This document shows, piece by piece, positions 5,378 through 48,870 of a stretch of 64,000 bases of DNA. Each line of letters opens with the position of its first letter. Within the stretch, counting starts at the first letter, position 1. Origin of the DNA: Zootoca vivipara (lineage: Eukaryota); assembly GCF_963506605.1 (NCBI RefSeq), contig NC_083286.1, forward strand, positions 33,356,001-33,420,000, in the 5' to 3' direction. Below the pieces are notes generated by a model. It was not told the origin of the DNA. It ran no database searches and saw only the letters and a list, made by a program, of their open reading frames with translations. Both the position numbers and the translations under genes were made by a program.

Positions 5378-28103
<22,726 letters not shown>

Positions 28104-28947: not shown

Positions 28948-29266
28948 CAGGGGTTCCCAAACTAAGGCCCGGGGGCCAGATGAGGCCCAATCACCTTCTA
29001 AATCCGGCCCGTGGACAGTCCGGGAATCAGCATGTTTTTACATGAGTAGAATGTGTCCTTTTATTTAAAATGCATCCCTGGGTTATTCGTGGGGCCTGCC
29101 TGGTGTTTTTACATGAGTAGAATGTATCCTTTTATTTAAAATGCATCTCTGGGTTATTTGTGGGGCACAGGAATTCGTTCATATTTTTTTTCAAAATATA
29201 GTCCGGCCCCCCACAAGGCCTGAGGGACAGTGGACCGGCCCCCTGCTGAAAAAGTTTGCTGACCCG
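28948..29266. mobile_element. Non-autonomous hAT (OC1-like) with an internal tandem duplication of about 70 bp
   Basis: Same family as 13847-14097; TSD (t/a)tctaaat. Confidence 0.88.
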
Positions 29267-29649
29267 ATCTAAATATTTCTGTCTTGTTGCTGATCTCATG
29301 TCAGCTAAACTTAAAGCATGGGGTAAAAATGCTGCAGCTTGTATAGACTTAGTTGCAAGAAGTCAAATCATTTTTGAACTGGGAAGAAAACGTTCCTAAC
29401 TCTTTAAGTGCACAGACAAGCTAGGGAGACACCCAGGAGCTTCACTTGCTTGTGCTCTGAGAACGTCCCTGCACACGGAAAAACACAGATTTTGGTGCAA
29501 CAAACCCACCCTCGCTCGCTATGGTGTCGTCATATCAGCTTGACTTCTCACATGATTATCTTCCTTCAGATATAGCAGCGGGGAAAGAAACACACACATG
29601 CGAATTCTATTGCATTATATTGGCATTTCAACCTTGAGCCAGTTTCAAC

Positions 29650-30780
29650 CTCCTGCGCCGTTTTGTTTACTACAATGGCTCCACAAACCATAAAAAGCAC
29701 ACCGGGGCGGACAAAACTTCTGGAGATTTATTATAATCGCACGGGATTATTCCAACCAAGACCGGGGCGGGGGAGAAAGCATGGGGGTGGGGTGTTTGAT
29801 GTTGAGGTTTCCGATCTCTCCAGGCGCCAGACGGAAACTGGAGCCTGAAACTCTTTTGAGAGGCAACAAATCGTGAAGATGTCAAGCAAGGAAGGGGGTG
29901 GGAGGTTTGCAGGAGGAGAGAGGAACCAACTCGCTCGCCCCAGGGAAGGCAGGACACCCCGGGGTGCCGGTCCTTCCCTTTATAAGATAGTAGAGCAGGC
30001 GGGTCTTTCCTACCCACCGCTTCAGCCCCCCTCGCTCCTGCCCTCCACCGACCCCTAAACGGGGAGAGGGGGAAATGTGTGGGGTGGCGAGCAGCCAGAG
30101 CATTACTTGAAGAGATGCCTCGTCCACACCGGAACCCAAACAGTGTCCCTCGTCACAGAATACCTGAGAGAAATGGAGGCCTTTACACCACAGGCGCCCC
30201 CACATCTGAGGGACAAAAAAAAAAATTGGGCGCCGGACCCTCTCTTGAGGCCGAAACCCGGAGCAGACACGCCCCCACACCAGGAAGCAACAACACCCCC
30301 CCTACACACACACACCGCTCACCTCATGGGCGCTCCCGCCAGCTTAATACGAGCCCCGCGAAGCGCGGCGGGACTTTTGTGCAGACTTTTTTTTTTTGCC
30401 TTTCCCCGAGAAAGGGGGGTCTCCTCTTTCTTCTTCTTCTTCAGGTCTACGTGCGCATGCGCCGACCTCGCGCTCTGCTTCTCTCTCCCCCTCTCCGCCT
30501 TCCCTCAAGTCTTCGGCTACCAATCTCCGGGATGGAGCCAAGTGCGCTTGCGCAGTTGCTAGGCTGTTTTTCTTCCCTCCTCCTCCTTCGCGCTTCGGAG
30601 GTCAAGTCAAAAGGTTCGGGTGATTCCCCAGACCCGGGCGGCGGATCGGTGCGTCAAAAGTGGTGGTTAGGCATCCCCTCAATCAGGATCATCCTGATTG
30701 AGGGAGTAGCCGCTTGCATTTCCTCTGCTTGGGAGGTAAAGTTGCACCGAAAAAGGAGAAGGGAAGAGGACGCTTGGTTT
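29650..30780 (-). promoter_or_regulatory. ZFYVE16 CpG-island promoter with probable non-coding exon 1 (donor after 30323)
   Basis: CpG-rich; AG|GTGAGC donor at 30322 on the minus strand; NRF1-type TGCGCATGCGC at 30452-30462 and TGCGCTTGCGCA at 30543-30554. Confidence 0.75.
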
Positions 30781-30798
30781 TTACATAACGTTTGAATA

Positions 30799-31148
30799 AA
30801 AAGGTAAAGGGACCCCTGACCATTAGGTCCAGTCGTGACCGACTCTGGGGTTGCGCGCTCATCTCGCATTATTGGCCGAGGGAGCCGGCGTATAGCTTCC
30901 AGGTCATGTGGCCAGCATGACAAAGCCGCTTCTGGCAAACCAGAGCAGCACATGGAAACGCCGTTTACCTTCCCGCTGTAGCGGTTCCTATTTATCTACT
31001 TGCATTTTGACGTGCTTTCGAACTGCTAGGTTGGCAGGAGCTGGGACCAAGCAACGGGAGCTCACCCCGTCACAGGGATTCGAACCGCCAACCTTATGAT
31101 CAGCAAGCCCTAGGCTCAGTGGTTTAACCACAGCGCCACCTGGGTCCC
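30799..31148 (-). mobile_element. Sauria-type SINE, full length
   Basis: TSD ataacgtttgaata at 30785-30798 and 31150-31163. Confidence 0.92.
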
Positions 31149-31860
31149 TATAACGTTTGAATAGGCTTCATTTTTATGTAGAGATGCCAAATTTGGGGAA
31201 CGTTACTATAATTAAAGCAGTAGTACAGGGCGCCTCCGTCTACTGTCCTCCCTTCAAGGTCCTTGCCCTTCCCTGTTGTGATCCTTTTTAATCTTTTAAA
31301 TGGACTTTGGTATCCGGCGGTGAAACGTCGAGCTCTTAAGAGAAGCAGGAGCGATCAGAAAGTGCGGATTTGAAGGTCCTTTGGACGCCCGGGATTGCAT
31401 GGAGCTATTTTAAAGGGGAAAGTTCCTTTGAGAATGTGCAGAGTAGTACTACACGTAGCTGACCACTCAAAAACTCCAGCCGTTCTTGCAAATTAGAGTT
31501 GGACTTTAATTTAAGTGGCTGCTGAGCTATAGACATATATTTGTTTTATAACTACATTTATTAGCTGTCAATCAAAATGCATCATTTCCCTGTGTCCTCT
31601 TAAATATATATAAGCAACATAATCACTATCCTCATATCAGCATAAGCCTGATAGCTAAGGAGTGGACTTTTTCTGAGGCAGCCACTAAACTGAGGAGGTA
31701 AAGTAAGCTTGCAACTTTCGTGGGGCTTGCATGCCACGCCTAAAGCCAAAACCGTGCATAGTCAAAACACATTGGGTTCAATGGTGGGTGAAATTGACAG
31801 TCATTTTTCTTGGAACCCCGCCCCCTTTTTATTTTTGGCTACACACATAAGGCTTAATGT

Positions 31861-32246
31861 TGTTGTTGTTTAGTCATTTAGTCGTGTCCGACTCTTCGTG
31901 ACCCCATGGACCAGGCATCCTCAAACTGCGGCCCTCCATATGTTTTGGCCTACAACTCCCATGTTCCCTAGCTAACAGGACCAGTGGTCGGGGAAGATGG
32001 GAATTGTAGTCCAAAACATCTGGAGGGCCGAAGTTTGGGGAAGCCTGCCATGGACCATAGCACACCAGGCACTCCTGTCTTGCACTGCCTCCCGCAGTTT
32101 GGTCAAACTCATGTTCATAGCTTCGAGAACAGTGTCCAACCATCTCGTCCTCTGTCGTCCCCTTCTCCTAGTGTCCTCAATCTTTCCCAACATCAGGGTC
32201 TTTTCCAAGGATTCTTCTCTTCTCATGAGGTGGCCAAAGTATTGGA
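31861..32246 (-). mobile_element. Bov-B LINE 3' fragment interrupted by a MITE
   Basis: Reverse copy of the 17.2-17.7 kb sequence; TSD gcttaatgt. Confidence 0.9.
31912..32047. mobile_element. 136-bp hAT-type MITE
   Basis: CAGGCATCC..AAACT TIRs, 8-bp TSD ccatggac. Confidence 0.9.
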
Positions 32247-33579
32247 GCTTAATGTGCACAAGTTAAATGCACATAAGTTGCAGGCTTATTATATTTCCTC
32301 CTCACATCGGTATTCCTGGCATCTTTGTTGTATAGGTGTCCTCCTATGCTGAAGACACACCCCATTAATTACCTTGATCACCCATGTTAAGCTGAATGTT
32401 GGAAGATTTGGGACATAGCACTATGGAATTTGCTCCCACAAAAATAGGATTAGAAAAATGCACAGAGAATAAGGTTATCAAGAGCTACTAGCCATGATGA
32501 CTATGTTCTGCATCCACTTTGGGGGGGGGGGAAACTATGTCTCAATACAGTAGTAGCAGGTGATAAGAACCACAAGTAGGCAGAATCCTGTTAAACTTGG
32601 GTCTTTGTGGGTTTCCCATAGGCATATGGTTGGCCACTTTGAGAACAGGATGCTGCACTAGATGGGCCATTGGCCTGATCCAGCAGGCTCTTATGTTCAG
32701 TGCTGCAAAACATAATTATAAATAAATGCATTGTGTTCTGAACAAACTATAGCAAATATTACTTCTTCAACATACCAAAGTGTTACAAAATATTTAGGCA
32801 AACTCTCAGCTTGGGAGTGTAAATATAATTCATTAATATTTGGCTTTAATTGTTTGCACTTCTATGTGACTGAAGTGTTGAAAGGGAGTCATGCCTAATT
32901 ACTTAATCACTTCTCCCAAATAATTGTTTTTGTTTACAGGAGCACATCCTAAGCCTTCAGGCTTGATAATATAATCTAATAGTTAGAATCATGTCAAAGC
33001 TTGTGAAAATATTTATTTGCTTTTAATGGCTTTTGGTAAAATAACATCAGACAATGAAGAAACCATCTGTTTGCAGGTTACACTCATGTGCAATATTTTG
33101 TTTTTAAGATGCACAGTGCAGTATTTCAAGGTCATCATTAGTTTTAATTGCCAGAAAATATATGTTAATATATATGTTAATAATTCAAATTTACTTATTT
33201 ATTTATTTAACAAAAAATATATAGTTTGATTGCCGTAAAGACAATAAATATTAAAATTATAAATAATACATGTAAACAATTTAAAACATTTAAAAATAAT
33301 TAAAATTAACAGTAAAACACATCAACATTTGGATAGGCTTGCCTAAATAAAAATGTTTAAGTGGGTACAGTAGAGTGCAAATCAATACATATTGATAAAC
33401 TGAAGGTGTTAGGCCATGGAGTCTGAAGATTGTAATAAAGTACAGGAGCTGAAAATTAGGGGGTTTAGATTACTAGAGTGCCTATCTAAGGCAACAGGGA
33501 CTGCAGAGCAGGGATTTTTAAACAATTTTTTTATTTTAAAGCCAAATGATTTAGGAGAAAGTGGAATTGCCCCACTTGA

Positions 33580-33773
33580 GAGCTGAAAGAACTTTCTGAC
33601 AGTAAGAGCTGTTTAGCAGTGGAAACAGACTCCCAGAAGAGGTGGTGGACTCTCCTTCCTTGGAGGTTTTTAATAAGACGTTAGATGGCCATCTGTCATT
33701 TAGCTGGCATTCCTGCACTGCAAGGGAGACTAGATGACCCCCAGGGTCCCTTCCAACTCCACGATTCTATGAA
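33580..33773 (+). mobile_element. CR1 3' end
   Basis: ...gactagatgacc...ggtcccttccaactc...gattctatga. Confidence 0.75.
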
Positions 33774-34336
33774 TTTTGAATGGTAACCAAGTCTGCACTT
33801 AAATCCCTTCTGCGAAATACTAATATTCTGGCAGCACCCTGTGCCTCTACAGATGCATATGGCTGATTGTCCCTCCTTAGAAACATTGCAGAACAGTTAA
33901 GTTATTATGGGCCCCTCCCTCCCCCCCCCAGCCTGAAGTGATTAAGTGGAGGAACAGGTTGCTCCTGTTTGTAAGAACGTGGCCTTTGTTTCTGTTGTTG
34001 CATCACAGTTTGCAGCAGATGGGCCCTGAAAGGGAGAGCATCACCATTCGCTTTTCATTATACAAGTAATTTATGCAGACACCTGCTATTTTTTGAGAAA
34101 TCCTCTATAAGTTTTCACACTCGCCAGCAATAAGAAGAGTATTCTCCCCCCCTTTATATCTTCTCAGCACATACAAATAATGAGTGAAGACAAACAAGAC
34201 ATTTTGTTTAGTTCACAACATTTGGCTGCTGCTGAAGAGCTTTCCCTGTGGTTTATTTGTCACAGTTACAGGGACAAATTGGAACCGGTCCTTGCCTTTA
34301 AGATCTACAGCTGCTCTAATTACATCTTAATGTGCT

Positions 34337-34595
34337 TGAAACAAAATAAAAAAAAAAATCCTTCCAGTAGCACCTTAGAGACCCACTAAGTTTGTCATTG
34401 GTATGAGCTTTCATGTGCAAGCACACTTCTTCAGATACACTGAAACAGAAGTCACCAGACCCTTATACTGTACAGTATATAGTGAGAGGGTGGGGAGGGG
34501 TATTACTCAGAAGGGTGGTGGGAATGGGTGATTGGCTGATAGGTGTGGTAAACCTGTTGACGACTGTTAACGACTTCAATTGGTCTTACAGGAAT
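34337..34595 (-). mobile_element. Penelope-like element terminal repeat (pLTR) remnant
   Basis: On the minus strand: CCAAT box, TATA-like stretch, hammerhead core, then ttagtgggtctctaaggtgctactgg shared with the copies at 25037, 46958 and 48392. Confidence 0.75.
34401..34438 (-). ncRNA. Minimal type I hammerhead ribozyme motif
   Basis: GUAU-CUGAAGA-A-GUGUGC UU GCACAU-GAAA-GC-UC-AUAC: helix I GUAU/AUAC, intact CUGANGA and GAAA core, helix II, palindromic AGCU helix III. Confidence 0.7.
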
Positions 34596-35778
34596 CTAGC
34601 TTCAAAATTAAGGGAGCATGCAGCAGCTTTTATGGTGAAAATTGGCTTAAAAAACCTGATTGGTACAACTGCCAAAAGCTGTGGGTTTATCCATTCTGAA
34701 ATGCTAAATGTGTTTTGTTATCTAAATGTGTGGTTGATTTAACATTGTAGCCAATATCTTAAATTAAGGCAACTTTAAAGTCCCTGGCATGCAAAACTGT
34801 TACCCTTCCCCAATTGGGGGAGGGATTTGGTAACCCTAATACATGTGACTATGTCAAAATGAGGGATGTATGAACGCTAAGGAGACTTCCGTCAGCACAG
34901 GATGTATCCTTGTACAACAAAATTTCCCCCCTCCTCTGCCCCCCAATCTGTTCTGAAGGTTCCCCAAGCCTCCAAAGTAAATTTGGGGGGCAGTGGGATG
35001 TACATGAAGGGAGTCGTCTCCTTACACTAGTGCTAATCCTTGCATTTGCATTTTTATTTAGTTGAATACTGCCCATAGTTTTGACACACTGTTAAATTAT
35101 AAATGACATTACTTAATTTTTAAAACAGCAGAGAATCCATTAATTTATGATCAGCAGAGAAAAAAGTTGTACCCAACTTGCTAAATCATACATCAGAACT
35201 GACCCACTGAAATTAATGGACTTAAAAGTCTACTGGTTTTAGAGGATCTAGTCCCTAAATGTGTGGATACACAACTCAGAATCTCTTTATCTTAAAGTTA
35301 ACTATTCCCATAGCATAGACGTTCGTTCATTTGATCGTGAAATAGTGCTTTCAAAAATACATCTGCCCCCAATTCCATCATAGCATAAAATGCACAGGCA
35401 TCACGTACAAGCAAACTATTTACAAATATCTACATTAAGTGTCTAAAAAATAAAACACATTCAGTTGTTTTCTGCAGTTATTTTAATTATTTTAATTAAA
35501 TTGGTGAAAAATGCTTAAAATCACTCTAATAAAAAGGTTCCCTGAAGTATGATGACAGGACTACAGCCCAAACCAGGGGCTCTGTTGGCATGCAATAACT
35601 TCTGCATGTTGACTTCTATGTATCACAGTGATGAAAGACCTGGAAGTCAATAGAAAGCCCACACACGCAAGCACATATGAATCTTAAATCAGTCTCCTTG
35701 AGCATTAAAGAGGTGCATTGCCTCTGTCACCCCCCTCCTTTCTAGGCTCTACCCTCCCCTACAGAGCAGTCAGTATTT

Positions 35779-36123
35779 TCAGTTTTGATCAGCTGTTTCC
35801 TCTGTTGAATGCACATAATTTTCTTCAGGTGTTGGGGAACAAGAACTTTTAGACGTACAGTTCAGCATTCTAGTGGGAGATGTGTGGGAAACAGAGCAGG
35901 CGCAATCTTGAGCACTGCACGTCTGGCAACTCAAACACACAGGAAGAGCTGACTTTGGGGGCTCTGAATCATCTTTGCACTGATTACTGCTAAGAGCAAG
36001 CTCTTCTTCTGAAAATTTGCTTTCCTTATTCTGCTGCAAACTATCTTCTTTCTCTTCCAGGGCACGAGCAAGCATATAACTAACTTTTCTTTGATGGGCC
36101 AAAGCTTCCTCCTTATCATTCAG
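35779..36123 (-). CDS. CCDC125: CCDC125 last coding exon
   Basis: [25 protein letters not shown]...TADQN then TGA. Confidence 0.9.
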   Translation of the reverse strand: MNDKEEALAHQRKVSYMLARALEEKEDSLQQNKESKFSEEELALSSNQCKDDSEPPKSALPVCLSCQTCSAQDCACSVSHTSPTRMLNCTSKSSCSPTPEENYVHSTEETADQN

Positions 36124-39100
36124 CTGTAAAAATCAATAAAAAAATAAAAATAAACAGTGTATATTTATTTTTACAGAGATAAAAGAACACCATTAATATG
36201 CCCTCTATGAAGCCATACAAGTTACCAACCGAGTCTATCAGCATCCTAATGATTTCTTGTGGATTATCCAATTCTTCTATTTTCTTGCTGTCGGCGCCAG
36301 AAACAAGCATGCCCATCAACTTTCGCCCCAAGCTTTTCCTATTCCCTTGAAATGTGAAAGCACCTGAGGGGAAAAAATAACATTCACATTTAAGTCCTGA
36401 TCTTTGAGATATTCTAAACAACAATCACCTTTTTAAAGTCCAAATAAAATTAAGCCTAAAACAAATATACAACTGGAAAACTCAGGCTGTTACCAAATGA
36501 AAATAAACTGCATACATCTAATCCAGCTTCCAAAAGTACACATGCTTTTGGTGGTGACTGCTACACAGACAAAATAATAACCAGCACAGATAGAACAAAA
36601 AGAATAGAGCAAAATGTTCTGCCGTTAAAGTGAATAAAGTGCTAGTAATGGAGGCCAAAATATGCTGATCTTAGATAACGTGTTTTGAATCCTCATTTTA
36701 AAATAAAGTAGTTATTCATAGTCTATTACAGGAATAGCCAATGCAGTGCCCTCCAAACGTTGTTGGGCTCGGACTCCCATCAATTCCAGTTGGTAAAACC
36801 AAAGGCCAAAGGTTGGCTATCCCTGCTCTTCTATTAAGCTCCAATATCCTATCAGCACCAGAAAGGCAATAATACAGGGGTGAGAAAAGAAGAAATGTAT
36901 GCAGGTGCTTGAAAGAGGGAGGAGAAATTGCAATAATTTGGGAGTAAAATTATGTGAACTCCAAAACGGATATGAACTGTTTATTACTTTAGTTCACTCG
37001 CTGGTGGATGAATCCTCTCCCATCATTCCAAATACACATATATTTTTTTAAAAGCAGATTGCAATCACAGGATCACACTTTTATCATATTATCACCCACA
37101 TGCAAATTATACATGTGCCAGAAAAATGCTTCCTATGGTCTTTTAACTTGACATTTATATTATTGGACATAATCCAGCATATATAATGCCACCAGTATGG
37201 AGAGATTATTCCATAATTTCTCATAGCTGTCTCCATGTAAACACCTTTTCCCAGATAATGAATAAGTGAGATTCAGAAGGTTTCAAATAAGATATCCTGA
37301 ACTTTGGCTGTGATGTTTGAACAAGACCATTGTGTTTTGAGGTAATATATAAAAGTTCTCTCTTTGATGATGTTATCTGTGATGGCTCACTGATATACTG
37401 CTCTTCCTGAGATGAGCAGTAATCAAGCAATTAACATGCATGAACCAGCCTTAAATTCTCTTGGTAGGGACTGCTTTGCTACTCTGTTAGCTGCTATGAT
37501 ATTCAGGTCAGCAAATGTATGATGTCAAACAGTAGGTTTTAGGTTTATTCGAATAGGTTTTATACAAAACAAAAACTGCAAATTCTGGGCTACTTTCAGT
37601 ACCACTGAAAATCATGCAGCATGGATAAAATTACCATCGTCTTTTATGTTTTTCCAGTTGAATCGTTTCTTTTCTTTTCTGCAGATCTTATTCATCTGTG
37701 TGAGTCCCAGAGCCTGGTCCTTCCTCCGCATCAGCTGTTGCTCAAATGCAATTCTGAAGGCATCTGCCATAATATATGCTTCTTCTTTACTCTTCTTCAG
37801 AAGCTCAAACTATGTTGTTGTTTTTTAAGATTGAGAGAAGGTTCAGATGACGTTCAAAAAAAGAGTGAATGAATCCACATTTTGGAGCTTTTTTAGTCAT
37901 TCAGTCCCAGTACATTGGTATGGCAACTGCTTCCCCAAATGAAGTAGAGCTATACACACACACAGTCACTAGGTGACCAGGAAATTTAATTCTAACAATT
38001 GACTGGGAAAACCTCTAGTATACTCTGCCACAGGATTGACATTCAACAACAAAAACAATAATAAAAGTGGCTGTCCACACAGGGAGGCACTTTGTTCTTC
38101 GTTTATCATGGAACTGGGCTACGCCTTGTGCTAGGACGCAGAATCAATGGTAAAGAGTGTTAGAGTTGCTACAAAAATAAGTATCACCTACTACTGCTCC
38201 CTATAAAATCATCCTGTTTAGGCAGCAAACACCCCCACATTTTTCTTTGTGTGGAACAGCAACCAAGAAAGCAGAGACAGACAGACTTCTAGAAACAATT
38301 ATTAGCTACCAAACCTAGGAAACTTTTTGGGACTCATCCAGAATCTGCTCTCCTAGTTGCATGAATGGATTTCATCATTTAGCCTAAAGAGGGCTGCACA
38401 AAGATAATGAGATGTGCCTACAAGAAAATGGCATTGATTCAGAAGAAACTTCTTCCATTAGAGCATGGATAGGCAAACTAAGGCCTGCAGGCCAGATCAG
38501 GCCCAATTGCCTTCAGGATCCAGCCCGTGGATGGTCCGGGAATTGCTGCATGGATCGCCAGCGTGCGCCGTTCTTTCACTCTCCTTCCCTCTCCCTCACA
38601 CGGCGCCTCCGCCTCCTCCCTCCCTCCCTCCTCCTGGCTTCTCCCCACCCTGCCTAGAGGAGGAAGGGGGCTGGGCTATGTTGGTGCCACCACCACCACC
38701 AGCAGCAGCAGCAGTTGAGCGGCTGCCATTTTACGCAGTCCCTCTCCAAAGCCCTTTCACATGCCGCTCATCGTCCCTCTGCCGCCGCCGCAAGCCCCTG
38801 CCACTTGCAAGACACAGGTAAGCAGCTACCAGGGCTCGTGGTGTTCTTGCATCATTCCCCCCCTCAAAAAAATGTAGTCTGCGCCCCCACAAGGTCTGAG
38901 GGACAGTGGACCGGCTCCCTGCTGAAAAAGTTTGCTGACCCCTGCATTATAGCAAGAAAGATTCATCTTTGGATCCATCCCAGTTGTTTTCATAGGCTAC
39001 CCTTGTCTAAATATACTCTTATGCATTGGGCTGCTAATATGTATACTGTACATACGGTATATATAATAATATAATATAATATAATATAATAATACAAGTT

Positions 39101-45998: not shown

Positions 45999-46957
45999 TG
46001 GCAACACAAATAGCTTCTTATTTCAAGCTAGAGGTGCCTTTGTTCAAATACAAAAGCTTTGTTTAAACACGTCAGGGAAAGTTGTGCTGGAAAATAAATT
46101 AATAAAAACGAATAATTATGTTATAACAAAACTAAAGATGTCTCCGTTTCTTTAACAGGCACTTCTGGCATTTCTAGATGGCAGCAAATATTTTTTTTAC
46201 ACTGTACTAAGATTTTCCTAAATAACCCATGCTTCTTGTCAAAAAGATTATTAATTACAGGAAGCATTTCCTGCAAATTAAACACATGTTTTGTTACTAC
46301 TGATTTCTAAGCACGACTGCAAAATAAGATTCCAAGAACTTAAAAGCATATCAGTGTAATCTTATGCCGTGCTGGCAGGACCATAAACACACCCAGCCAC
46401 TTTGTTTACTTTAAAATGTAATTAAAAAAAGAAAGCATTGTTTAACTTACAATCCAACAACTGCAAAAGTCACATCAAGACCTATGTGGAATAGAGTTAT
46501 TGTATGAGACGTGCATATTACACTATGTTGTTGCTTTCCTAGTTCTCTTTAATAGAATCCACCCATTTATAACATCCTCACAAAGGAACTCTGAATACTT
46601 GGCTGATATTTTTTTAAAGCAGATAATGTTAAGAGGAAGCATTTATAGAAAACCCTCTCTTCATTCAAAATGTCTTCTTATGCTGTTTTTGCACACAGAT
46701 ATTTTAATTTTAGTAAACCATTTTGAATGTGTGCTGCTTGTTTTTAAGAAAATAAAATGGAACTTCTGTTCACCTACCCTTTAGAGACTGATTTAGACCT
46801 AAATACAGTAACGGGAAGAGCTTGTCTTCTGCACGTCCATGTAAATATGAACCAAGGTCATGAGTAACATTGTGTATACATTCTCCCATAATGTTTACAA
46901 TTTAGGCACGCTTAATTGGGGTGCCAGGGGAGGAGGCTGCTTCGTTAACATGTAGTC

Positions 46958-47056
46958 TTAGTTGGTCTCTAAGGTGCTACTGGACATGTTGTTTTTTTAA
47001 AAAAAATTAATTTATTTTGCCTGCCTCAGACCAACACAGCTACCTACCTGAATCTA
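46958..47056 (+). mobile_element. Penelope-like terminal-repeat fragment (part downstream of the hammerhead)
   Basis: ttagttggtctctaaggtgctactgg...cagaccaacacagctacctacctg. Confidence 0.65.
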
Positions 47057-47334
47057 GAAACATAGAACCATAGAGTTGGAAGGGACCTAGAGGATCATCC
47101 AGTCCAACCCCCTGCAGTGCTGGAATATGCAGCTGTCCCATACAGGGATCAAACCTGCAACCTTGGGGTTATCAGCACCACACTTGTATCAACAAGAAGC
47201 ATTACCCACTGCTCATTTCTCATTAGAATGACACACTTTTAGTTTTACAGTATATTTGAAACAACAAGCATTTTATATTTATCAAGTATACAATGAGCAA
47301 AAACATATTTATCTGCAGGTATAGCTAGCAGGTG

Positions 47335-47660
47335 AGTGGCTGTAGCTCAGTGATAGAGCATCTGCTTTCCATGCAAAAGATCCCAGGCTCCATTCCCAGC
47401 ATCTCTACGTAGGGCTGGGAGAGAGGCTTGTTTGAAATCCTGAACTGCTCCCACTCAGTGCAGACAATGTTGAGCTAGATCAGGCACCCCCAAACTGCGC
47501 CCCTCCAGATGTTTTGGCCTACAACTCCCATGATTCCTAGCTAACAGGACCAGTGGTTGGGGAAGATGGGAATTGTAGCCCAAAATATCTGGAGGGCCGA
47601 AGTTTGGGGATGCCTGAGCTAGATGGACCCATGGTCTGACTCACTATAAGGCAGTTTCCT
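47335..47660 (+). mobile_element. tRNA-derived squamate SINE interrupted by a MITE
   Basis: TAGCTCAGTGATAGAGC A-box head; a related reverse copy lies at about 59030-59212. Confidence 0.75.
47481..47616. mobile_element. 136-bp hAT-type MITE (same family as 31912-32047)
   Basis: 8-bp TSD agctagat. Confidence 0.9.
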
Positions 47661-48269: not shown

Positions 48270-48870
48270 ACGGTACGTACGGCAAGGAAAGCTCCCCGTC
48301 CTCGTTGCACGGGCAACGCAAAATCTCAGAGAGCGTGTGAGCTGAGCGCACGCGAATTCTGGCTAAAAAAGAGAACGCGAAGCAATTTTAGGAAGAAGTG
48401 TGCATGCACACGAAAGCTTATACCCAGAACAAACCTAGTTTATCTCTAAGGAGCTACTGCCTACTGGACAATTTTTTTTAGGTTTTATTTATTTATTTCC
48501 ACTTTCACGAAAGAACGCGCACGAGCCTCCCGGGCTTCCCTCCGCGCCACGTGCACAGAACCCCGACGCCCCACGGCTCGGTCCCTCCTCGGACCCCCTT
48601 TCCCTCTCCCCCCCCCCCAGGGGCCGAGCTTTCCGGAGCTGCGGGTCTCCGCGCGCAAGCCAAGCCCGCCGCAGACCCACCTGGCAGGCGAGGCGAGCAG
48701 GGCTTCCTCCTTCCCTCCAGTCCAGCCGTCCGTCGCCCTTCCCGGTCCGCCCCTCTGTTCCTCCCGGCCTCCGTCCCTCCCTCCAGGGCAGGGCTTCACC
48801 TGCCCGCCTACCCCGAGCCCTCCCTTCCCCGCAGCTAGAGGAGGAACCTGCAGAGTCAAGAGTGGGCACG
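48270..48870 (-). promoter_or_regulatory. CpG island, probable CCDC125 promoter and non-coding first exon
   Basis: CpG-rich segment 2.3-2.9 kb upstream of the CCDC125 ATG, with candidate CAG|GTG donors on the minus strand near 48679 and 48799. Confidence 0.7.
48392..48480 (+). mobile_element. Penelope-like fragment with partial hammerhead
   Basis: gaagaagtgtgcatgcacacgaaagcttatacc...ctctaaggagctact. Confidence 0.7.

Follow-up and report, generated by a model that had tools for sequence, protein, structure and literature searches.

A minimal hammerhead motif downstream of CCDC125 in Zootoca vivipara is likely an inert passenger in a solo Penelope-like pLTR fragment

Between two genes on the same strand of a Zootoca vivipara chromosome lies a sequence that reads as a hammerhead ribozyme, and its position raises the question of whether it acts on the RNA of its neighbours or is simply what a retroelement left behind. 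An earlier note on this DNA had read it as a type I hammerhead of minimal form, carried by the pLTR of a Penelope-like element (PLE), and had proposed that it could cut CCDC125 read-through RNA before the ZFYVE16 promoter. We analysed the 64,000-nt stretch that contains it (contig NC_083286.1, positions 33,356,001 to 33,420,000; hereafter the window) together with the rest of the genome. On inspection, the minus strand from 34438 to 34401 agrees letter for letter with that description, including helix I, both catalytic cores, helix II, the extra A and the predicted cut after UC at 34405. The parts of the motif are as follows.

34401 to 34438, minus strand: the minimal type I hammerhead as a whole, its cut predicted to fall between 34405 and 34404
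34438-34435 and 34404-34401, minus strand: strands of helix I (4 bp by complementarity)
34434-34428, minus strand: core CUGAAGA (sequence)
34427, minus strand: extra unpaired A between positions 9 and 10.1 (sequence)
34426-34413, minus strand: helix II stretch (5-6 bp by complementarity)
34412-34409, minus strand: core GAAA (sequence)
34406 to 34409, minus strand: self-complementary AGCU, the 15.2-16.2 palindrome, able to form helix III only between two molecules, as had been claimed (two-molecule fold modelled)

The motif is real and not a chance arrangement of letters. A strict hammerhead descriptor, requiring both cores, 4-bp helices I and II and UH, matched once in the 64 kb, at 34438-34401, and any match at all arose in 3 of 300 dinucleotide shuffles. 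Rfam, searched at the gathering threshold and at E<=10, placed no hammerhead model here, a result that is uninformative for minimal motifs. The locus has the features of minimal hammerheads (min-HHRs): CUGANGA, GAAA and UH cores in type I order, a helix I of 4-5 bp and a helix II of more than 4 bp (5 bp with a 4-nt loop by ViennaRNA), an unpaired base between 9 and 10.1, a palindromic 15.2-16.2 with no helix III in the monomer, and a place inside the pLTR of a PLE. It departs from the type at the 10.1-11.1 pair, which is G-U instead of G-C; the available text of PMC4209133 terms G10.1-C11.1 highly conserved and leaves it outside that paper's descriptor, and our literature search found no number for the rate effect of G10.1-U11.1.

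The sequence around the motif identifies its carrier and the changes that it has undergone.

34338 to 34594, minus strand: solo, 5'-truncated, tail-less pLTR fragment (257 bp) of an older Neptune-type Penelope-like subfamily
34531 to 34535, minus strand: CCAAT box of the pLTR (sequence and family alignment)
34462 to 34481, minus strand: TATA box split by a 10-bp insertion at 34468-34477 (family alignment)
34439 to 34443, minus strand: initiator-like site and predicted family transcription start, with its A at 34441, 37 nt before the cut and ~30 nt after the family TATA
34420, minus strand: A-to-U in loop II, which breaks the family's 14-nt helix II palindrome (loop found in 46 of 19,213 exact motif matches)
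34413, minus strand: C11.1-to-U, a CpG-type transition that turns the conserved G10.1-C11.1 into G-U (U in 1,479 of the 19,213 exact matches)

A 261-nt region covering the fragment had 2,551 candidate matches in the genome, and the 40 that were scored ranged from 91 to 100% identity, with the window fragment 91-94% identical to the 39 other full-length matches among them. Most related copies run 5' into reverse transcriptase (RT) and GIY-YIG coding sequence at the point where the window copy ends (34594); the window copy keeps no coding sequence and is 76% identical to the pLTR of intact copies. No clean target-site duplication was seen around 34338-34594, where a 7/8 match is possible. Set against the majority letter in each column of 25 aligned old-subfamily copies, its 244 positions contain five substitutions; its T run is also longer, and it has the 10-bp TATA insertion. 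At 11.1, C is present in 17,734 of the 19,213 exact matches, and the UU loop occurs together with U11.1 in 7 of the 46 loop-sharing matches (7/19,213), which are scattered. The UU loop may, we presume, form a stable CUUG tetraloop.

Both promoter boxes that the earlier note had placed upstream are present: the CCAAT box occupies 34535-34531, and the TATA-like stretch, which is interrupted, 34481-34462. We take 34439-34443 to be an initiator-like site, and the family TATA to be such, from consensus motifs. The 10-bp interruption reads as two Tc1/Sleeping Beauty-type excision footprints, an origin inferred by comparison with footprint sequences taken from the available part of PMC6943129. Insertions of 5 bp of the same footprint type are found in the pLTR TATA run of several independent copies (L002, L004, L005, L008), and in the window copy the insertion is doubled.

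Nothing else in the window completes the ribozyme. There is no repeat unit in 29000-38000, and the locus therefore holds a single copy in place of the at least two consecutive hammerhead units of an active retrozyme. Three further family pieces lie on the plus strand at 25038-25124, 46957-47067 and 48392-48459, antisense to both genes and without the CUGA core; since these pieces are on the opposite strand and lack that core, the motif has no same-strand partner in the same RNA. The first piece is flanked on both sides by a clear duplication of ~12 bp, and the last sits within a CpG island upstream of the CCDC125 coding exons. Elsewhere in the window, 47336-47407 (plus strand) gave a weak Rfam tRNA match (31.2 bits, several broken pairs) and is probably the head of a tRNA-derived SINE.

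The family to which the fragment belongs is very large. A 33-nt motif pattern had 19,213 exact matches in the genome, or one per 75 kb, and its control had none; a 28-nt pattern from the 3' flank had 31,292. A protein search recovered many open frames of 925 residues (901 from the ATG), with intact frames at loci L071-L082, several of them in 3,030-bp tandems. The frame at L071 has RVT_1 (5e-12) and GIY-YIG (6e-5) domains, that is, RT together with a C-terminal GIY-YIG endonuclease in one reading frame, whose start codon lies 103 nt after the predicted cut. A CX4CxxC linker stands at residue 761 of 901, before the endonuclease, which itself has two cysteines between GIY and YIG, and downstream histidines. 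The layout is that of Neptune elements, with tandem pLTRs, copies in inverted pairs and 3' ends that fall near +60 and +97, and a CX2-5CxxC linker marks Neptune or Nematis and not Penelope or Poseidon in the available text of PMC8557442. By these sequence features the parent is probably a Neptune-type PLE; the linker is one that Nematis also has. These family copies and RT/GIY-YIG parents bear out what the locus had been taken for, a Penelope-like pLTR with a minimal type I hammerhead.

The family looks to have been active recently, judging from intact frames that are nearly identical across chromosomes. At L071, L073-L075 and L082 (for example G000:C2:103027500-103037499), the 925-residue frames form tandems of 3,030 bp as well as inverted pairs. 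In most family copies the helix II stretch is a perfect 14-nt palindrome (for example L071:3575-3588), and the joint of some inverted pairs falls exactly across this palindrome (L119), a pattern suggestive of second-strand synthesis primed by fold-back at that point. At L051:1950-4300 (G000:C1:2777400-2779800), four nearly identical 598-bp units stand head to tail, each containing an intact hammerhead, a pLTR and both the last part of the coding frame and its opening codons; this array is retrozyme-like and could form dimers in cis.

To learn whether the ribozyme is maintained, we compared differences inside and outside the motif at two levels. The young and old subfamilies differ at 0 of 38 positions within the motif and at 46 of 185 surrounding positions (p=1e-4, with gaps counted). 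In 25 inserted old copies, 21 of 950 motif cells differ against 85 of 4,625 flank cells (p=0.43), these copies being the best matches to the window copy, a choice that biases all rates downward. The motif is therefore selected in transposing lineages and drifts after insertion and, by these rates, the ribozyme is under purifying selection between subfamilies. The window copy itself has 2 changes in 38 motif positions and 3 in 206 other aligned positions (p=0.17; small numbers), and so lacks the better conservation of motif than flanks expected of a domesticated type.

The places at which short family copies begin bear on which RNA is used as the insertion template. We sampled 100 places among the 31,292 3'-flank matches, chosen by the 3' flank alone and all from the first 2.9 Mb of C1 (L051-L152). 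In this sample 35 copies extend beyond -150 relative to the cut and 65 begin within -150 to +13. Fourteen of the 100, all among the 65 short copies, start at -37 to -33, where 2.0 would be expected if starts were uniform (p=3e-8 for the bin, ~1e-6 over 33 bins), and two start at the cut (-2 to +2). Position -37 is the A of the initiator-like site, ~30 nt after the family TATA box. From starts at -37 to -33 and not at the cut, we infer that the RNA used as insertion template had not been cut and that short copies arose by run-off at its 5' end. Several copies starting there have stuttered or inverted sequence at the junction. The same starts would place the ribozyme at +4 of the message, and are silent on the cutting of other RNA molecules.

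Genome-wide counts point the same way. Exact matches numbered 15,444, 15,291, 14,899, 14,597, 14,332 and 13,967 for patterns starting at +4, +3, 0, -1, -3 and -6, and the C before the cut is kept in 14,597 of 14,899 young-type matches (98%), so that the stepwise loss is 2.0% at this base against ~0.9% per base elsewhere. Copies made from cut RNA were considered as the source of that excess and rejected: of the 302 copies concerned 30 were inspected, and in 21 of these position 17 is substituted while the motif upstream of it is intact. Four of them (L185, L187, L194, L202) share U17 and a common upstream sequence and form a small sub-lineage; U at position 17 is permitted by the NUH rule. A spliceosomal intron ending at helix I was not supported, the AG being present in the old subfamily and not the young, and copies starting there sharing no upstream exon. 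The motif is selected, yet the retention of the base 5' of the cut in 98% of young-type matches, and starts at the transcription start site, argue against cut RNA as the insertion template and point to another job for the ribozyme, such as decapping the message of the element itself or cutting transcripts of tandems down to single units.

We then placed the motif relative to its neighbouring genes and their transcripts.

35471 to 36123, minus strand: last exon of CCDC125, with the stop at 35781-35779, the splice joint 36123/36230, and ATTAAA at 35496 and 35487
33198 to 34257, minus strand: ordinary AATAAA signals downstream of the motif, at 34257, 33535, 33207 and 33203 (sequence)
30322 to 30426, minus strand: probable first exon of a FYVE/SARA_C gene (putative ZFYVE16), from an RNA contig and a CpG island, ~4 kb past the motif

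CCDC125 was confirmed by a first coding exon 95% identical to the Podarcis muralis protein and by ten exon matches, and the motif is indeed sense to it and downstream of its stop, at a distance of 1,341 nt. For the downstream same-strand gene, whose CpG island lies near 30,000-30,800, the FYVE and SARA_C domains hold and the name ZFYVE16 is putative, a paralogue being possible. RNA evidence came from three raw runs that bear the same species label (~6% of each) and one contig set, compared with 30200-36500 at 97% likeness. CCDC125 was clearly expressed in one of the three raw runs, X22, where depth was 31.8 at 35686-35896, 3.1 at 35475-35685 and then 0.3-1.1 down to 34631, and a contig from X13 ends at 35471, just after ATTAAA 35496/35487. 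By this drop and this contig end, the motif lies ~1 kb beyond the point, near 35,470, at which most CCDC125 RNA ends. Read-through amounts to ~1-3% of the last-exon peak in X22, the sole expressing run. The minus-strand transcription into the motif region that the cutting proposal presupposed was found, faintly (X22, 0.3-1.1x between 34631 and 35474), and faint minus-strand RNA at low coverage lies on both sides of the motif. RNA ends at 34404/34405, a sign of cutting that had been suggested, are not listed in these data, a comparison of low power in libraries that show such ends poorly. Reads on the element mostly carry other copies' letters (58/58 and 80/81 at 34384, for example). The RNA test is weak because ~6% of each run was read, one of three runs clearly expresses CCDC125 and the element reads come mostly from other copies.

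Beyond the motif, minus-strand reads recur at 33365-33575 in two of the three raw runs (X22, 2.1; X23, 2.2), with a contig at 33337-33666 near AATAAA 33535/33207; this RNA, ~2 kb past the main 3' end, is possibly a distal poly(A) isoform or the result of internal priming at an A run. Bins 33998-34208, 32732-33153 and 31255-31676 had no reads in any of the four data sets. The first of these, just past the motif, fits cutting, poly(A) addition at 34257 or sampling alike (~0.7 reads expected per bin). The other two are free of repeats and empty in all four, so nothing is shown to reach the promoter. Most of the RNA reads fall on two high-copy repeats, at 30800-31150 and 31858-32250, which separate the motif from the downstream promoter; the second contains an open frame resembling repeat fragments elsewhere in the window (17157-17703).

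Whether a single copy could fold into an active form was addressed with nearest-neighbour models, which omit tertiary contacts. The best fold of the 38-mer is not a hammerhead (z -0.15), and in a 350-nt context helix I has a pair probability of 0.00 and helix II of at most 0.06. In RNA folded from the predicted start, helix II reaches 0.21 in the window copy vs 0.88 in a young copy, and the active dimer with swapped helix III is worth -6.7 kcal/mol vs -11.1. In both copies an inactive helix II duplex is much more stable (for the window copy, duplex -17.7 and best cofold -22.7). In the available text of the relevant papers, min-HHRs failed to cut as single units and cut weakly as dimers (PMC4209133); cleavage of the anole PAc motif occurred only when its protein was present, was unneeded for insertion and left no RNA-seq reads ending at the cut (PMC11167929); and one of nine Xenopus dimers cut (bioRxiv 2026.07.22.740005).

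Taken together, these results make it likely, and we hold this with considerable confidence, that the locus is a lone 5'-truncated Neptune-type pLTR and an inert, neutrally decaying passenger. Reverse transcription of an uncut element RNA would have started ~66 nt 3' of the cut and ended after ~250 nt, and the insert would have drifted since. In the active element each 3,030-nt tandem unit would carry the motif once, at +4 of the transcript made from the pLTR and 103 nt ahead of the start codon, and there a second copy or the protein of the element would let it fold and cut. Rare CCDC125 read-through RNA, by comparison, would carry one weakened copy and end at ordinary poly(A) signals. We propose that the window copy seldom cuts because a single weakened copy cannot close helix III. 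What counts against an inert reading is that both catalytic cores, helix I and the UC site are intact; so do the faint minus-strand RNA that reaches the region, with an empty bin just past the motif, and the possible CUUG tetraloop.

Those intact cores leave room for an unselected copy that incidentally cuts a small share of CCDC125 read-through, through AGCU pairing in trans or with the element's protein. Trans partners exist because the family is abundant and transcribed: it is intact elsewhere, and reads from other copies occur in all three raw RNA runs. Cleavage of PAc is protein-assisted in the available text of PMC11167929, and the modelled active dimer of the window copy is still favourable. 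However, the inactive helix II duplex is far more stable than that dimer, read-through is scarce and shows no ends at the cut, and the window copy is tail-less, the tail of PAc being the segment between two reverse-transcription start sites (PMC11167929, as far as available). We regard such cutting as unlikely. Its most far-reaching form, in which ~19,000 dimer-dependent hammerheads include solo copies activated in trans by element protein or other RNA, which cut host read-through and here shield the ZFYVE16 promoter, seems to us very unlikely; if it were true, transposon activity would be linked to host transcription termination, and the genome would have a transposon-controlled layer of RNA termination throughout.

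Still less probable is retention of the copy for its effect on the host, whether through protection of the ZFYVE16 promoter by cutting or through an influence on a long 3' UTR of CCDC125. The sense orientation between two same-strand genes is suggestive, as is the antisense, core-less state of the window's three remaining family pieces, and a precedent has been suggested for the Clec2 3'-UTR hammerhead (PMC6155905, in the part available). Yet a sense copy falls in a 5-kb gap by chance in ~3% of gaps, so many gene pairs will look like CCDC125 and putative ZFYVE16; the motif is not conserved over its flanks and has lost the conserved 10.1-11.1 pair; poly(A) signals stand before and after it; and the repeat-free bins ahead of the promoter are empty. 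With 19,213 exact matches in the genome, placement expected by chance, no same-strand partner in the window, 2/38 against 3/206 changes and a position past the main 3' end with poly(A) signals following, the proposal that the motif cuts CCDC125 read-through before the ZFYVE16 promoter is unsupported. We give scarcely more than nominal credence to a promoter in the solo copy, with CCAAT, TATA and initiator driving a short capped RNA from 34441 that begins with the hammerhead and serves as a non-autonomous template: the CCAAT box and initiator-like site are retained and short family copies pile up at the predicted start, but the TATA is split, the tail is absent, UU loop and U11.1 coincide in only seven scattered matches, no daughter lineage with the insertion in both halves appears among 25 aligned copies, and 33998-34208 has no reads.

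The passenger reading makes this locus an ordinary one, a gene-adjacent hammerhead being expected by chance in this genome. Its interest lies in the family, a large natural data set whose intact tandems make the role of the ribozyme testable; why PLEs keep a hammerhead is an open question in the available text of PMC4209133 and PMC11167929. The lacertid family is a further instance of the known pLTR min-HHR kind, and our literature search, partial in coverage and with supplements that may list lizard families, found no paper on lacertid Penelope hammerheads or their 5' ends.

The comparisons that follow refer to the portions of the cited sources that were available. The PLE min-HHRs of Cervera and de la Pena (2014, PMC4209133) resemble the motif here in their short helix I, longer helix II, extra 9/10.1 base, palindromic 15.2-16.2 without helix III, pLTR location and thousands of mostly single copies, with reptiles named among their hosts; the window copy differs in its G-U at 10.1-11.1. 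Relative to the ~9,000 Xenopus copies in that work, the lacertid family has 19,213 exact matches, is very uniform and builds helix II from a perfect palindrome of 14 nt. PAc (Poseidon_Ac) of Anolis carolinensis (Frangieh et al. 2024, PMC11167929) shares tandems, a pLTR hammerhead, a lizard host, a pair of 3' end points separated by a tail and an uncut RNA template, whereas the parent element has the CX4CxxC linker that is absent from Penelope and Poseidon, and a start codon 103 nt past the cut where that of PAc is inside stem II. With the Neptune clade (Craig et al. [quoted passage not shown] Clec2 3' UTR and RECK-type intronic hammerheads (PMC6155905) are likewise sense to the host gene and near its 3' end, but those are conserved across species at their sites, whereas the window copy belongs to a high-copy repeat, shows nothing to suggest conservation at its locus and is placed beyond the main 3' end. 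Finally, the non-LTR retrozymes of Li, Clavereau and Pollet (2026, bioRxiv 10.64898/2026.07.22.740005) are, like the window copy, non-coding, pLTR-derived, hammerhead-bearing and mostly intergenic monomers; active ones need at least two consecutive units, where the window copy has one, and the four-unit 598-bp array at L051 would qualify.
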